Shown here piece after piece: positions 2,104-30,325 of a stretch of DNA of 64,000 nt; the stretch's first letter is position 1; the number at the start of each line of letters is the position of its first letter. Location: IMG/VR virus record IMGVR_UViG_3300011116_001227; one strand, 5' to 3'. This stretch comes from a virus (taxonomy: Duplodnaviria; Caudoviricetes). The position numbers and the translations under genes were made by a program. The notes under the pieces are model-generated. The model saw only the letters and a list, made by a program, of their open reading frames with translations. It was not told where the DNA came from and did not search any database.

Positions 2104-3480
2104 TCAAAGAATCTGAGAAGCTAATGTTGCCAGTGCAGATCTTTCGCCCTTTAATAAAGTCACATGCCCTGAAACATCGTAATCTTTAAATTTTTCAATT
2201 GCGTGCGTAAGACCATTTGTAAAAGAATCAACGTGAACATTGTCAATTTGTTCAAGATCACCAGTTAAAACTATCTTCGATCCTTCTCCAGCACGTGTGA
2301 TGATAGTCTTAAGCTCATGAGTTGATAAATTTTGTGCTTCATCAATGATGATGAATGCATTAGGAATAGATCTTCCTCTGATATAAGTAATTGCTTCTAT
2401 TTCTATTAGGCCCTTCTGCTGCATTAACTCTAGATAAGGATCTGAAAAGAATGTTTGTTGATCTTCTGGCTTCTTCTTTCTATTTCTTGCAGTCATCTTT
2501 TTTCCAGCAGCAGAGCAAAGTAGATATTCAAGATTATCTCTGACTGGAGCGATCCACGGCTCCATCTTTTCCGCTAAAGTTCCTGGAAGGAATCCAATGT
2601 CCTTGCCGACAGCATGAATAGGTCTAGACACTATTAACTTTTGATAAATTCCATTTGTCCCTATTGACTCTAATTGATCTAGTCCAGCTGCTAGTGCAAG
2701 AAGCGTCTTGCCACATCCTGCTCTTCCTGAGAGAGTCACTAATTTTATGTTAGGATTCATCAGAAGATCAATAGAAAAATGTTGTTCTTTATTCCTTGGC
2801 CTTACACCAAAGATATTCTCGAATTTTTGTAGATGAACAAGAGAGCCGCTAGAATCAACTCTGCAGAGAGCTGAATTGACGTTTGTGTCTAGAGACTTAA
2901 GAACAAAAATTTGATTTGGATAAAATTTATCTTCAACTACTTCAGCAGCTTTTTTTGTCATACCGCTGTAGAATTCTTTAATAAACTCTGAAGTAGTTGT
3001 AACAACTTTAACGCCTGAATATAAAGCATCAAAGCTTTCAGAGACCCTTTGACTTAAATAGTCTTGCGCCTCAATCGATAGAGACGAGCATTTAACTCTA
3101 ACATTGATGTCCTTAGAAACCAAGAAAACTGGATTAGTACTTGTTTTCTTCATTGCTAAGGCAAAGTTAATGATCATATTGTCAACAGAAGTCGGTTCAA
3201 GTAATTCTTGCGGTGTTTCTGTTTGAACACTTGTCATTACTTTTAGAGTTCCACCGGTAGGAAGCTCCACTCCTTCTTTTAAAGACTTTCCTTTAGAAAG
3301 AGAGTCTAAGAGTCTAATAACTTCTCTACAATTTCTTCCAACTTCATCAGAACGTGTCTTGTGTTTATCAAGCTCTTCCAAGACCAACATTGGAATAATG
3401 AGGTCATTATCTTTAAAATTGTTAAAACAGTTTGGATCACTCAGTAAAACGTTTGTGTCTAGTATGTAGGTTTTTCTCAT
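2104..3480 (-). CDS. phoH: PIN domain + PhoH-family ATPase (PhoH2-like)
   Basis: N-terminal PIN motif YILDTNVLL...VLEELD...DNMII...SKDINVR; Walker A GRAGCGKT; PhoH motifs GFLPGTLAEKMEPW, RGRSIPNAFIIIDEAQN, KIVLTGDLEQID. Confidence 0.93.
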   Translation of the reverse strand: MRKTYILDTNVLLSDPNCFNNFKDNDLIIPMLVLEELDKHKTRSDEVGRNCREVIRLLDSLSKGKSLKEGVELPTGGTLKVMTSVQTETPQELLEPTSVDNMIINFALAMKKTSTNPVFLVSKDINVRVKCSSLSIEAQDYLSQRVSESFDALYSGVKVVTTTSEFIKEFYSGMTKKAAEVVEDKFYPNQIFVLKSLDTNVNSALCRVDSSGSLVHLQKFENIFGVRPRNKEQHFSIDLLMNPNIKLVTLSGRAGCGKTLLALAAGLDQLESIGTNGIYQKLIVSRPIHAVGKDIGFLPGTLAEKMEPWIAPVRDNLEYLLCSAAGKKMTARNRKKKPEDQQTFFSDPYLELMQQKGLIEIEAITYIRGRSIPNAFIIIDEAQNLSTHELKTIITRAGEGSKIVLTGDLEQIDNVHVDSFTNGLTHAIEKFKDYDVSGHVTLLKGERSALATLASQIL

Positions 3481-25562: not shown

Positions 25563-26500
25563 AAAGATCAATTGCAGTCATCGGACAAGGATTTGTGGGA
25601 GGTTCTCTTACAACTGTCTTTTCAGAGCGTGGGTTTGATGTCTATGCGTATGATAAGGCAGGAAAGTATGCAAAGGGAGCATTGCCAAGTCATGGAGAAC
25701 CTGTTGCTGGTTACCCAAATTCTATTGCAGAATTAATTCAAGATAATGAGGATGGTGGAACACCGGGATTTTCCAACGTTTATTTCGTGTGTCTTCCTAC
25801 ACCAATGTATGAAGATGGTTCAGCTGATCTAAGCATTGTTGAAGGCGCATTGAGAGAATTAGCAGCTGTACCTGGTCAAAGAATTGCGGTAATTAAGTCG
25901 ACTATACCCCCAGGATCTACAGAAAAATGGAATGAAATGTTCAAGGAAACAGGTCTAAAAGTAGTCTTCAACCCAGAGTTCTTGACAGAAAGAACAGCAT
26001 TAGACGATATGCGCAACCAAGATAGAATTATTCTTGGTGGACCACGACCTTGGATTAATACGGTCAAACAAATTTTTAGAACAGCATTTTCAAATACAAA
26101 AATAATAAAGACATCATCTACTACTGCTGAAATGGTCAAATATTTGACAAATAATTTTTTAACAGTCAAGGTTGCATTTGCTAACGAAATGCATCAGATT
26201 TGCGAGGCTTTAGACAAAGAAGGCCTCAATGTTGATTACGATAAAGTAATTGAATATGCTTCGCATGACATTAGACTAGGCCCTAGTCACTGGAATGTGC
26301 CTGGACCGGATGGTCGTTTTGGCTTTGGCGGAAGTTGCTTTCCTAAAGACATTAATGCCATGATGTGCGTTTCAAAAGGATTAAATGTAAATTCAACAAT
26401 TCTTAAAGCTGCCTGGGACAAAAATCTTGAAGTAAGACCAGAGCGTGACTGGGAACAACTTCTTGGAAGAGCAGTTTCTATTAAAAAACAAGATACTTGA
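25559..26500 (+). CDS. ugd: UDP-glucose/GDP-mannose dehydrogenase family, short form
   Basis: IGQGFVG, VCLPTP, KSTIPPG, FNPEFLTE, AEMVKY, GFGGSCFPKD; ends at 313 aa without the usual C-terminal domain. Confidence 0.88.
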   Translation: MKRSIAVIGQGFVGGSLTTVFSERGFDVYAYDKAGKYAKGALPSHGEPVAGYPNSIAELIQDNEDGGTPGFSNVYFVCLPTPMYEDGSADLSIVEGALRELAAVPGQRIAVIKSTIPPGSTEKWNEMFKETGLKVVFNPEFLTERTALDDMRNQDRIILGGPRPWINTVKQIFRTAFSNTKIIKTSSTTAEMVKYLTNNFLTVKVAFANEMHQICEALDKEGLNVDYDKVIEYASHDIRLGPSHWNVPGPDGRFGFGGSCFPKDINAMMCVSKGLNVNSTILKAAWDKNLEVRPERDWEQLLGRAVSIKKQDT

Positions 26501-26536
26501 ACTAATGGTTATATGAGGCTTACATTATGACACATA

Positions 26537-27355
26537 ATGCAAGATACAAAATTATCTTTTGAGTCTCTTCCCACGGGTAAGCCTCATGTTTCTTTTTCAG
26601 AAGTCAAACTCTGGAAAGAATGTTCCTATCGTCACAACTTAGTTCATATCAAAAAAATTGACCTGTCAAAACCCTCTCCTGTTTTAGACTTTGGTACTGC
26701 AGTTCATGCGTCTTGTGAACATTATCTTCTAACAAGAGAAATGAAGCCAGAAATTGCTTTTGAACACATGGAAAAAGCTTGGGCCAAGCATGCAGGAAAT
26801 CCAGATTTTAGCCCCGCTGCATTAGAAAAATCAAAGAAGGAAGTTGAAGCGATTCTTTCAGAAGTTCCAAAGTTTCTTGATGAAACATTCGAGGAATGGG
26901 AAGTTGTCGATGCAGAACATCAACTCTATGAAGCAGTAGAAAATCATCCTCATGCTTTTAAAGGCTTCATTGATGGTGTTATTAAATCAAAAGGAAAAAG
27001 AGGAGAAACATTGTACTGGATCCTCGACTGGAAAACTACTGCAAGAGGATGGATGAGAGAAAAAAGATCAGACGAAATGGTCAAATCTCAATTGGCTCTC
27101 TATAAGAACTTTTGGTGTAAAAAAAATCCTGATGTTCCTTTCAAAAATGTCCGCTGCGGATTCGTGCTCCTGAAGAAATCAGCCAAACTAGGAGATCATT
27201 GCGAGCTATTCTCTGTATCAATGGGAGATGTTCCCGTAAAAAGATCACTTAAAGTCGTTAGCAACATGTTAACTTCTGTAAAACGAGGAGTTGCATTAAA
27301 AAATCGGGATGCTTGTACGTGGTGCGAATATAAAGGCACCGAGCACTGCACTTAA
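26537..27355 (+). CDS. PD-(D/E)XK nuclease (Cas4/AddB-like)
   Basis: HVSFS...C, FGTAVH, GFIDG, ILDWKT, QLALY, C-terminal CTWCEYKGTEHC. Confidence 0.88.
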   Translation: MQDTKLSFESLPTGKPHVSFSEVKLWKECSYRHNLVHIKKIDLSKPSPVLDFGTAVHASCEHYLLTREMKPEIAFEHMEKAWAKHAGNPDFSPAALEKSKKEVEAILSEVPKFLDETFEEWEVVDAEHQLYEAVENHPHAFKGFIDGVIKSKGKRGETLYWILDWKTTARGWMREKRSDEMVKSQLALYKNFWCKKNPDVPFKNVRCGFVLLKKSAKLGDHCELFSVSMGDVPVKRSLKVVSNMLTSVKRGVALKNRDACTWCEYKGTEHCT

Positions 27356-27360
27356 AAGCT

Positions 27361-27769
27361 TTGAAAGATAAAGAATACTTTGGGGATATTGTGTCGTTTC
27401 AAAAAAGCTTCTTATAGAATTTAATGGCGATTATTGGCATTGTAATCCTCTAAAGTATGAATCAAGTTTTTTTATCAAGTTAAAAAATTAAAAGCTCATG
27501 AAATATGGGAAAATGATGCTAAAAGACTTGAAACAATTTCTGAATTAGGGTATAGAATACACATTATATGGGAGAGCGAATCCAAGAATGGATCTTGGGT
27601 TGATAAGCTCGATCGTTGGCTGGAGGAAAATGCAAAAGAAAACAATACTAATGCTATCAGACCATCCGTGAACGACTACAGCTCAGCGGATGTAAAATTG
27701 GGTGAATTGCTGGAAAGTCATGGAACTAACACCACAACGCAACTGGAAACGGTAGACGTGAAGGTTTGA
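27361..27769 (+). pseudogene. Frameshifted Vsr/DUF559-like (putative homing) endonuclease remnant
   Basis: Three frame fragments read LKDKEYFGDIVSFQK / KLLIEFNGDYWHCNPLKYESSF / YQVKKLKAHEIWENDAKRLETISELGYRIHIIWESE. The breaks fall at A6 (27401-27406) and T7 (27467-27473). EFNGDYWH and GYxxxxIWE are hallmark motifs. Confidence 0.8.
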
Positions 27770-29141
27770 AAAGTTAGAGCTATATGACAATCAGCAGCCG
27801 AGCTCCTGTGAAGAAATTCTGGAGAAGGTTCAGAGACTACGGTTAGCCTAAATCGAAAGACATGGTAATGATCCGACAGCGCCCAACACCAATTTGGTGA
27901 TGATATAGTCCAAACTTCATAAATAAGTGAGCACGTCGGGTGTCGGAACTCAAGCGCGCTGGTTAGTTCAAGGTTTAACTAGCACTGGCAAATATAGCTT
28001 TAGATGTTTTGGCGGAGCAGTAAGACACGACAACTACGATACTGTCGCAGTCGATCCAGATTTTATTATAAAGCCAACAGATGGATTTGGCGATAAGAAT
28101 CTGCTTAGAAAAACTCTTGCGCAAGTAAAACCTGATGCAATTTTGTTGTTTACCGATCCTAGATTTTTTGTTTGGGTCTGGGAAATGCAAGACGAAATTC
28201 AACAAGTATGTCCAATAGCATACTGGCACTTGTGGGACAATCCACCATGGCCAGACTACAACAAGGTTCTATATGAGTCAACTGATCTGATCAATTGCAT
28301 TAATTATCCGACTTATGAGATGGTCAAAGAAAGATTTCCAAATAGAACAAATTATATACCTCACGCAGTTCCAAAAGATCTTTATAAACTCATTTCAAAA
28401 GAGGAGTCAATTCAATTCAAGAAGCGTCTTCTAGGTAATGAAAGAGCTGATCATTTTACTGTGTTGTATGTTTCAAGAAATGCTAGAAGAAAGATGACTG
28501 CTGATATTCTTGTATCTTGGAAGCTATTTCTTAAAGATCTTCAAGAAAAGCACGGTCACACAAAAGCTTCTATAATCATGCACTGTGATCCTCTTGATCA
28601 AGAAGGAACAAATTTACACAGTGTAATTGACATGCTGGGAATTAAAGAAAATACAATCTTTTCAAAGGATAGAATTGGTTTTGAAGACATGCGTGTTCTG
28701 TACAACATGTGTGATACAGTCGTAAATCGTTCTTCTAATGAAGGATTTGGTTTGCCAATTCTCGAAGCAAAGATGTGTGGAAAACCAGTCATATCTATTA
28801 AAACTGGTGGGTTAACACGTCAAGTTGAAGATCACATAACTGGCGAGCAATATGGAATTGGTCTTGATCCAGAAGTAAGCTCTATGGTAGGTAATCTTAT
28901 GATTCCTTACATCTATGAAGACTTTATCTCTCATAAAACTCTTTCTGAAGCTTTTATGAAGATGTATGATTACGGTCCTGAAAAGAGAGAAGAGATTGGT
29001 CAGAGAGCAATGAAGCATGCACACAGAGATTACGATCTTGATGCTGTCGTCGCTGAATGGGACAGGACTTTAATGAATACAATAGAGAACTGGAAAGATC
29101 CAGCCACGAAACCTGCAACATGGGAAATGAAGGTGCTCTGA
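27630..29141 (+). CDS. GT4-like glycosyltransferase, split gene: join(27630..27669,27928..29141), 417 aa
   Basis: GGAGG SD and ATG 27630 give MQKKTILMLSDHP; splicing adds TTG and continues STSGVGTQARW; C-terminal SSNEGFGLPILEAKMCGKPVI. The ORF-track start at 27927 is the intron terminal G. Confidence 0.9.
27670..27927 (+). mobile_element. Group I self-splicing intron (258 nt, no internal ORF)
   Basis: P AATTGCTGGAAA (27705), Q AATCAGCAGCC (27789), R GTTCAGAGACTA (27828), S GATATAGTCC (27902); P3 TTGGGTG/CGCCCAA; P7 GACTA/TAGTC; P1 CATCCGT/GCGGATG with U-G at the 5' splice site; P10 GCTCA/TGAGC; terminal G at 27927. Confidence 0.95.
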
Positions 29142-30325
29142 TGTTTGAAACATTTCTAAATAAAAAGAAGATTTTACTTCGTGCACCAGTTTTAACTCAG
29201 TCTGGATATGGTGTTCATTCAAGACAAATTGCTAGATGGCTCTTAAGCAAAGAGAATCTTGACGTGTATTTTCAAGCGCTGTCTTGGGGCAATACTCCGT
29301 GGATCATTAATAGTGATTTTTGTAATGGCTTGATTGGAAAGATGATGGAAAAAACTGTCGATCCAACAGGACAAAAATACGATGCTACAATACAAGTTCA
29401 GCTTCCTAACGAATGGGACTCAACTTTGTCTTCTGTTAACATAGGAGTATCAGCATTTGTAGAAACTGATATTTGCAATCCAAGCTGGTTGAGAGACTGT
29501 GAAAAAATGACAGCAGTCGTAGTTCCATCAAATCATTGTGTGGATGTCATTAAAAAGACAGGTTCTTTAACATCACATGTACACGTCATTCCCGAGGCAT
29601 ATCCAGACGAGATTAGAGAAAAGAAAAAGACTCGCGTAGACGACATGATTTTTGATACTAATTTTAACTTCTTGTTTGTCGGTCAAATCACAGGAAAAAA
29701 TGCTGAAAATGACAGAAAAAATATTTTCTACACGATCAAGTGGTTCTGTGAAGTCTTTGACAAAGACAAAGATGTAGGTCTTGTAATCAAGACAAACTCT
29801 GGAAGAAATACAAAGATCGACAATCAGATTGTCACAAATATGCTTCGGTCTGTCTTGTCAGAATTGAAAAAGAAGACTGAGCCAAAAATTTACTTAATTC
29901 ATGGTGAAATGTCAGACCAAGAGATGGTTTCTCTATACACACATCCGCAGATAAAAGCGCTTGTTTCTTTAACGAGAGGTGAAGGATATGGTCTTCCTCT
30001 TCTTGAAGCTGCCGCATCCAGTCTTCCAGTTATTGCAACTGGATGGTCTGGCCATCTTGATTTCTTGTCAAAAGGAAAATTTTTAAATATTGATTACAAA
30101 CTAGAGAATGTTCATCCTTCTAGAGTCGACAACATGATATTCATGCAAAACTCAAAATGGGCAAATGTGTCTGAAGAAGACTTTAAGAAGAAAATTCTTA
30201 AGTTTAGAAACTCACATTCTACTCCAAAAGAATGGGCTAAAGAACTAAGCGAAAAGATTTTAGATCAGTATTCTTTTGAGTCGATCAGCAAATTATATGA
30301 CCAAAAAATTGGTAATCTTTTATGA
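29141..30325 (+). CDS. GT4-like glycosyltransferase
   Basis: Likely start ATG 29141 (TGATG overlap); LTQSGYGVHSR, RKNI, SLTRGEGYGLPLLEAAASSLPVIATGWSGHLDFL. Confidence 0.9.
   Translation: MFETFLNKKKILLRAPVLTQSGYGVHSRQIARWLLSKENLDVYFQALSWGNTPWIINSDFCNGLIGKMMEKTVDPTGQKYDATIQVQLPNEWDSTLSSVNIGVSAFVETDICNPSWLRDCEKMTAVVVPSNHCVDVIKKTGSLTSHVHVIPEAYPDEIREKKKTRVDDMIFDTNFNFLFVGQITGKNAENDRKNIFYTIKWFCEVFDKDKDVGLVIKTNSGRNTKIDNQIVTNMLRSVLSELKKKTEPKIYLIHGEMSDQEMVSLYTHPQIKALVSLTRGEGYGLPLLEAAASSLPVIATGWSGHLDFLSKGKFLNIDYKLENVHPSRVDNMIFMQNSKWANVSEEDFKKKILKFRNSHSTPKEWAKELSEKILDQYSFESISKLYDQKIGNLL

Follow-up and report, generated by a model that had tools for sequence, protein, structure and literature searches.

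[quoted passage not shown]

What is the broken, endonuclease-like sequence that abuts and runs into an interrupted glycosyltransferase (GT) gene of a phage, and what has it had to do with the intron in that gene? The window analyzed here, a stretch of 64,000 nucleotides (IMG/VR record IMGVR_UViG_3300011116_001227), is phage-like, with 36% GC, helicase, baseplate and tail-fibre-like genes and many sugar-pathway genes. Around the locus in question (27361-27769) genes are tightly packed on the plus strand, where all features of the window described below lie. A first-pass annotation, made from the letters alone, saw in this locus a Vsr-like endonuclease decayed by two single-nucleotide losses, took it for a possible snapshot of collaborative homing or intron invasion, and offered slippage-dependent expression as an alternative. 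Upstream of the locus is a gene for a PD-(D/E)XK (Cas4-like) nuclease (26537-27355; Pfam PF12705, E 3e-17), which also occupies the upstream position in most related loci; its stop codon at 27355 forms the 5' boundary of the element. The stretch is present in 20 public runs from 8 studies, mostly freshwater metagenomes (lake, river and other), although 5 of these runs, all from one study, are labelled marine plankton, and a 210-kb contig encodes a GT protein identical to that of the window. A blastn search of 26500-29200 against GenBank phages found no close relative; the matches covered the conserved intron core only and came from unrelated Staphylococcus, Serratia and other phages.

To establish what remains of the gene, we used the protein encoded by an intact homologue (L001, 339 residues) as a tblastn query against the window. 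This produced three collinear segments in three frames (27364-27414, 27402-27488 and 27467-27739; joint E 1.8e-50), together corresponding to residues 214-339 only, and no second copy of the endonuclease within the 64 kb. Piece 1 (frame 1, 27361-27417) reads LKDKEYFGDIVSFQKSFL followed by a TAG stop; it matches approximately residues 214-230, among them the catalytic Asp in the GDIV motif. Piece 2 (frame 3, 27402-27488), delimited by translation, alignment and tblastn, reads KKLLIEFNGDYWHCNP onward and carries the Vsr-type motif IEFNGDYWHCNP. Piece 3 (frame 2, 27467-27739), delimited by tblastn and translation, encodes the C-terminal half of the nuclease up to ca. 27600 and then a read-through tail that spans the GT ribosome-binding site, exon 1 and the P1-P2 part of the intron. 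In the alignment to L001, one nucleotide is missing at each of two homopolymers, namely an A6 run at 27401-27406 and a T7 run at 27467-27473, where intact relatives have the equivalent of eight. The ancestral stop codon lay at 27740-27742, where L001, L002 and L011 have TGA and the window has CAA, so that open frame 2 as a whole (27461-27769, FFYQVKK...IWESE...) continues to a TGA at 27767-27769 inside the intron; intact homologues end ca. 27 nt sooner, at TGA or TAA. Thus, the first-pass description of the two breaks, of a last frame that crosses the GT start codon and exon 1 before ending in the intron, and of a GT ribosome-binding site inside the endonuclease frame was borne out by alignment and translation, and the ORF map, with its tightly packed uninterrupted ORFs, agrees with its remark that the other reading frames of the window are unbroken.

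The damage goes further than these breaks. The 5' ca. 640 nt of the gene (the first ca. 213 codons) are deleted along with the native spacer, a loss that took away three putative zinc fingers, the NUMOD3-like motif and the first part of the nuclease domain. The catalytic residues are still encoded in the remnant, but they are spread over three frames. Piece 1 has a TTG at 27361 as its sole candidate start, and the frame-2 piece, which has no ATG, GTG or TTG before 27668, is untranslatable on its own. Judged from its reading frames, then, 27361-27769 is a pseudogene, dead several times over. The earlier annotation was right that the gene is dead; it understated the extent of the decay, because the 5' deletion and the mutated stop codon come on top of the two slips, and its proposal to restore the enzyme by mending the two frameshifts fails, as two thirds of the gene are absent.

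Might the gene nevertheless be alive, its frameshifts being sequencing or assembly errors or being bypassed, at the A and T runs, by programmed slippage of the ribosome or in transcription? Both breaks do fall in homopolymers, and samples differ in the length of the T run, a contig from run X5 having T5 at 27467-27473, two fewer T than the window. The T run is thus polymorphic in nature; relative to the T8-equivalent of intact genes, T5 is an in-frame loss, and run length varies between natural populations. However, contigs from independent public runs are identical to the window over 27250-27888 (X3) and 27346-27563 (X8), and the A6 run is the same in contigs of runs X2, X3, X5 and X8. As the X3 and X8 contigs come from other studies and agree with the window across the A6 and T7 runs, the breaks are real and not sequencing errors; the comparison was made on assembled contigs rather than raw reads, so that rare in-frame variants could escape it. 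Slippage would require two successive shifts in the same rare direction, in a sequence whose first piece has only the TTG and whose third piece has no start codon, while relatives carry other lesions that are not slippery. Above all, the missing 5' part encoded all of the putative DNA-binding modules as well as the helix and strand that open the nuclease core, and its loss excludes slippage-dependent expression. We therefore consider a living gene extremely improbable.

Pfam analysis of the remnant pieces returned only a sub-threshold match to REase_MTES_1575 (E 0.05), and the family was therefore assigned through intact homologues. A search with the largest piece led to products of relatives that all share the tail encoded by exon 1 and the intron, and at least six related phage contigs were found to have an intact homologue of 300-348 aa at the equivalent position. 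The ORF of L001 is unbroken over 348 codons, or 339 from its first ATG; the others are of 341 aa (L018), 340 (L017), 342 codons from stop to stop (L127), 310 (L020) and 300 (L100). In the intact protein, of ca. 340 aa, a Vsr-like nuclease domain at the C-terminus follows three putative CxxC zinc fingers and a NUMOD3-like motif. The three CxxC...CxxC repeats are visible in an alignment of 12 full-length members; Pfam matches of one family protein (P0007) to NUMOD3 (20.1 versus 20.4 bits) and zf-FCS (17.3 versus 22.4) both lie below threshold. A profile of the same 12 members matches Vsr (1vsr and 1cw0; E 0.005) and the catalytic domain of I-Bth0305I (3r3p; E 0.014). In an AF2 (AlphaFold) model of the L001 protein the nuclease domain has a pLDDT >90, and the last 32 residues, which exon 1 and the intron encode, are disordered (pLDDT <50); Foldseek aligned this model to Vsr 1cw0 with probability 1.0 and to 3r3p with probability 0.99 and a target TM of 0.70-0.73. 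Residues D221, E232, H239 and D265, invariant in 12/12 full-length members, align to Vsr D51, H69 and D97, and D/E/H/D catalytic residues define the EDxHD family (PMC3239194). PHROG matches of the protein are annotated as endonuclease or homing endonuclease. On its modelled fold and its catalytic residues, the family is a Vsr-like nuclease of the EDxHD (I-Bth0305I) type, with DNA cleavage as its predicted activity, and its gene is hereafter called the homing endonuclease gene (HEG). Viral contigs often encode this nuclease domain: IMG/VR yielded 284 confirmed matches, and metagenome contigs >443. As an aside, the best Foldseek E-values for the L001 model went to unnamed Toxoplasma mitoribosome proteins (9i05 and 9g6k) in long, poor superpositions (rmsd ca. 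21 A); these proteins may share a Vsr-like domain, as the title of PMC11879112 reports for FASTK-family proteins.

The gene into which the remnant runs begins well upstream of its called start. The true GT start is the ATG at 27630, preceded by a ribosome-binding site, GGAGG (27622-27626), that lies inside the endonuclease coding sequence and is kept in all remnants; the called ORF starts at a GTG at 27927. Exon 1 (27630-27669, 40 nt) consists of MQKKTILMLSDHP plus the first base of a Leu codon, and exon 2 (27928-29141) encodes the family 4 glycosyltransferase (Pfam PF00534, E 4e-15, and homologues). Between them lies the single intron found between the upstream nuclease gene and GT, a group I intron of 258 nt without an ORF (27670-27927), which scores 71.2 bits against Rfam RF00028 (gathering score 50). 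Its internal guide (27681-27692) pairs with both exons: the last 7 nt of exon 1 pair with 27686-27692 to form P1 (CAUCCGU/GCGGAUG), with a U-G pair at the 5' splice site, and the first 5 nt of exon 2 pair with 27681-27685 to form P10 (GCUCA/UGAGC). P1, P10, the terminal G of the intron (27927) and the splice sites are fixed in 13/13 homologous introns, whose consensus fold contains 73 pairs, with compensatory changes at 28. The GT gene is uninterrupted in 105 of 120 close homologues, which begin M.KKTILMLSDHPLSTSGVGTQ, exactly the predicted spliced product, and the predicted exon junction DHP/LSTSG is encoded as such by intron-less alleles, as the first-pass annotation had supposed. Together, the guide pairings with the terminal G, the 105 uninterrupted homologues and the consensus fold fix the GT start and the intron bounds. 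By its score, the P1 U-G pair, the terminal G and the covarying core, 27670-27927 is a group I intron, and self-splicing is predicted.

All intron-bearing alleles have CCG T/TG AGY at the junction (slash, insertion point), as P1 and P10 require, and intron-less alleles, with the exception of L015 (TTG AGC), have other synonymous codons there (CTN or TTA, and TCN; CTT TCC in L013). This pattern is accounted for by splicing constraint and co-conversion, and no further hypothesis is needed. We also considered a 5' splice site upstream of the HEG, which would make the endonuclease an intron-encoded ORF, and rejected it: exon 1 is needed for the GT N-terminus, as the 105 intron-less homologues indicate, P1 and P10 pair exactly at 27669/27670 and 27927/27928, and the upstream gene already has a complete C-terminus of its own. 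When read by eye, the HEG frame of a spliced transcript would enter exon 2 out of the GT frame, so that the C-termini of intact members would differ between spliced and unspliced RNA. The arrangement has misled gene calling. Intron-bearing GT alleles are called as proteins of 399-404 aa from a false GTG or ATG, 14 of the 15 best GT homologues (of 120) that lack exon 1 are such false-start calls, and HEG remnants are annotated as small hypothetical proteins (P0001, P0003-P0006 and P0008).

To place the window among its relatives, every fetched locus that shows the GT 5' end was sorted by the state of its HEG and intron. The intron occurs together with a HEG or its remnant in ca. 17 distinct lineages, neither is present in 13 lineages (L013-16, L109, L110, L113-120, L122-124 and L126), and a HEG stands before an intron-less GT gene in three (L128/129, L132 and L135); no lineage in this census has the intron without a HEG remnant. 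Among the intron-bearing alleles, the HEG is intact in L001, L017, L018, L020, L100, L127 and probably L207; gives a single-frame match with a shorter called ORF in L209/210; and is decayed in the window, L002, L003-10, L011/12, L098/L102, L106, L131, L133 and L208. L134, whose contig ends before the intron, was grouped with the decayed L131. Thus, two expectations of the first-pass annotation hold, in that intact homologues at this locus flank intron-bearing GT genes in 6/6 cases and every intron-bearing allele keeps the endonuclease or a remnant of it. The HEG-only alleles, however, mean that the pair is no single recent snapshot of invasion and that the HEG does not need the intron.

The same loci indicate where the HEG inserted and how it decayed. 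Alleles with neither HEG nor intron have a spacer of ca. 40 nt between the upstream stop codon and the GT ATG, or up to ca. 280 nt in L123/124. (In L123 and L124, ca. 320 nt separate the end of the PD-(D/E)XK match, at ca. 2681, from the position equivalent to GT exon 2, at 3001; in others the distance is ca. 82-96.) This native spacer is still recognizable upstream of the HEG start in L001, so that the HEG sits exactly between the spacer and the GT ATG. In L129 the HEG adjoins the GT gene in a different upstream context, indicating that it tracks the GT 5' end. Where present, the gene, intact or decayed, terminates in or at exon 1, 40 nt away from the intron. The end-points of the 5' deletions differ among the window, L002, L011/12, L003-10, L098 and L106, and the lesion in L208 is a frameshift; thus, the HEG has decayed several times independently. 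In a maximum-likelihood tree of 23 HEG-family proteins, members with and without an associated intron do not form separate groups; with 11 of its 20 inner branches below 80% support and long outgroup branches, it gives no order of events, neither as to whether HEG or intron came first nor as to whether HEG-only alleles once had the intron or represent the ancestral state. Two of the three HEG-only alleles are altered at the otherwise invariant Pro-Leu of the insertion site (DHQM and DHAL), where 105/105 other intron-less homologues have DHPL. These changes hint that the enzyme may target this site and that carriers may escape by mutation, in a post hoc comparison of n = 3 that involves distant GTs and ignores phylogeny.

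Other ORFs occur near some of these alleles. Directly upstream of the intact HEG of L020 is a different ORF of 492 aa (L020:2479-3957) with its own Vsr-like motif (IECNGLYWH ... FEDEW), and three paralogous minus-strand ORFs (300-2451) lie between it and the expected PD-(D/E)XK position, which may represent a pile-up of selfish genes at one intergenic spot. In L129, a 352-aa ORF on the minus strand (699-1757), upstream of the HEG-only allele, ends in CxxC...CxxC and by eye resembles a TnpB/OrfB-type transposon protein.

The overlap of the endonuclease frame with the GT gene predates the decay in the window. The frame reads into the intron in the intact L001, L017, L018 and L127, stops before exon 1 in L020, and stops inside exon 1 in L100 and L207. 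Thus, read-through into the intron is ancestral in many intact members, though not universal, and is not a by-product of decay. The amino acids of the tail vary wherever GT synonymous sites vary, and the part read from the intron comes from stems, P2 and beyond, that evolve through compensatory pairs; the tail is an incidental extension rather than a selected domain.

If HEG and intron have traveled together, closely similar copies of the block might be expected in otherwise diverged phages. In a sliding profile, the window and L003 are 95-100% identical over 27520-27939 and 72-80% identical in both flanks, with sharp edges; fixed-segment identities under-read the remnant in this pair, because that of L003 is shorter than the segment, and the sliding profile was used instead. 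L002 and L011 likewise are 88-98% identical in the block versus 60-78% outside it. The high-identity tract takes in ca. 110 nt of pseudogene that is free of RNA-structure constraint. The simplest reading of such tracts is a recent transfer of the whole block between diverged phages, and HEG and intron have probably spread as one block. Moreover, the window and L003 have the lost stop codon in common, which suggests that the block was already decayed when it moved or recombined; movement of a decayed block would need either an intact helper enzyme acting in trans, as in the T4 mobE/nrdB system (PMC2790892), or ordinary recombination.

Taken together, these data make it probable that 27361-27769 is the relic of a free-standing HEG that moved with an ORF-less intron, by collaborative or trans homing. 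In a mixed infection, the enzyme would cleave element-free GT alleles at some point in the conserved 5' part of the gene, and repair from the donor would copy HEG, exon 1 and intron together, since all lie within 40 nt of each other. The resident intron would probably split the target and so shield its carrier. Once the block was resident in the window's lineage, selection for the enzyme would have gone, and the gene would have lost its first ca. 213 codons, then one base in each homopolymer, and then its stop codon. The last ca. 110-230 nt are the only part that no lineage has lost, probably since GT has come to need them for its translation. Collaborative homing is the best-supported mechanism from the comparisons above, and a trans-homing variant like that of mobE fits them equally well.

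A different reading makes HEG and intron independent neighbours: the HEG homes to the point at the GT start where it is inserted, or to a site close by, the intron gives it no protection and does not depend on it, and their association results only from tight linkage and common descent. The census speaks against this, with 0 of ca. 17 intron-bearing lineages lacking a HEG remnant and 0 of 13 HEG-free lineages having the intron, as does the apparent movement of the block as a unit between diverged phages; yet features 40 nt apart would co-segregate under any mechanism, so that linkage alone could produce the co-occurrence, and RNA-structure constraint explains part of the identity of the introns, a caveat that only the ca. 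110-nt pseudogene stretch escapes. The HEG-only alleles and a HEG tree that mixes intron-associated and intron-free members speak for independence; those alleles also mean that the HEG persists without the intron and that protection by the intron is not required. Even so, an intron carried in the conversion tract of the HEG would still be an instance of trans homing, as for mobE (PMC2790892), and on balance we regard independence as unlikely. Another possibility, compatible with joint homing, concerns what the remnant does now: its retained 3' part may have been co-opted as a cis signal of GT, as a ribosome-binding site and perhaps a promoter, or as an aid to intron folding, which would make the region functional non-coding DNA derived from a HEG. 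At least the part that matches residues 263/267-339, with GGAGG inside it, is retained in all lineages, even those with the deepest deletions, and the 3' end of the HEG supplies the GT ribosome-binding site, the HEG having displaced the native spacer that in the window is lost altogether. A scan of 26400-28000 for sigma-70-type promoters and terminators found no more sites than in shuffled sequence, leaving the retained part without promoter support, and its retention could also reflect too little time for deletion; we therefore treat co-option as possible but doubtful.

Returning to joint homing, a more far-reaching version of it, which we put forward only tentatively, is that the locus preserves every stage of the proposed mobile-intron route, the HEG targeting the intron site, HEG-only carriers being shielded by their Pro-Leu changes and the intron providing a second, amino-acid-neutral escape. 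If this were true, the empty site, the HEG alone, the HEG with an ORF-less intron and the decayed HEG with the intron would all be found in living freshwater phages and, since the 5' splice site lies within the HEG frame, translation of the HEG would compete with folding of the intron on one transcript.

Systems of this kind are known, and the present locus is a probable further member. In collaborative homing as described for cyanophage S-PM2, the partners are the endonuclease F-CphI and a group I intron of psbA (Zeng, Bonocora & Shub 2009, as cited in PMC6083498 and PMC3984707), and in its arrangement the GT block matches the definition given for that pair in PMC6083498 and in the review PMC3984707. 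According to these sources, both systems have intron-less alleles in relatives and the same proposed logic, in which the target is interrupted by the intron and the intron owes its mobility to the enzyme. As far as these accounts go, they differ in that F-CphI is Endo VII-like and the present enzyme Vsr-like; that the HEG here is an upstream neighbour of the interrupted gene, directly adjoining its start codon, providing its ribosome-binding site and in many cases extending into the intron; and that HEG-only alleles exist here, where cleavage is predicted from sequence. In phage T4, mobE drives trans homing of an nrdB intron whose own I-TevIII is defunct (PMC2790892). Like the present HEG, mobE is free-standing between two conserved genes, depends on upstream transcription and acts on the 5' region of the downstream gene (as the HEG here would do), and a neighbouring intron without mobility of its own is dragged along in the conversion tract. 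In contrast, mobE is an HNH enzyme, and the T4 intron retains a dead internal ORF, whereas the dead gene of the window is the free-standing one, so that present-day mobility would need an intact helper in a co-infecting phage.

I-Bth0305I is the prototype of the EDxHD (Vsr-like) homing endonucleases, members of which are known within introns, within inteins and as free-standing genes (PMC3239194; PDB 3R3P). It resembles the present family in its C-terminal Vsr-like catalytic domain, with the same Asp/His/Asp positions, and probably in its N-terminal modular DNA-binding motifs, but it is encoded inside its own intron (in P5 of a recA intron) and has two NUMOD2/HTH motifs (PMC3239194), whereas the present family lies outside the intron and has three putative CxxC zinc fingers and a NUMOD3-like motif; the similarity is at the profile level only (E 0.014). 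HEGs are considered to pass through cycles of gain, degeneration and loss, as summarized in PMC3984707. Consistent with that summary, empty, intact and decayed sites coexist here in close relatives, and their lesions are independent by lineage; unlike the cycle as outlined there, complete loss of the remnant with retention of the intron was not seen in the census, and the 3' end seems to be held in place.

The window's own copy is thus an ordinary pseudogene, and the value of the locus lies in the natural series of states around it. For annotation, it means a GT gene called as a 404-aa protein from a false GTG and a HEG remnant called as small hypothetical proteins. In the literature cited here (PMC6083498, PMC2790892 and PMC3984707), there is bench evidence for only two pairs of a cooperating free-standing endonuclease and an intron that is ORF-less or defunct, F-CphI/psbA and mobE/nrdB; this locus would be the third such case, in a different nuclease family, host gene and habitat. 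Because the empty, HEG-only, HEG-plus-intron and decayed states are all present in public metagenomes, the model is testable with natural alleles.
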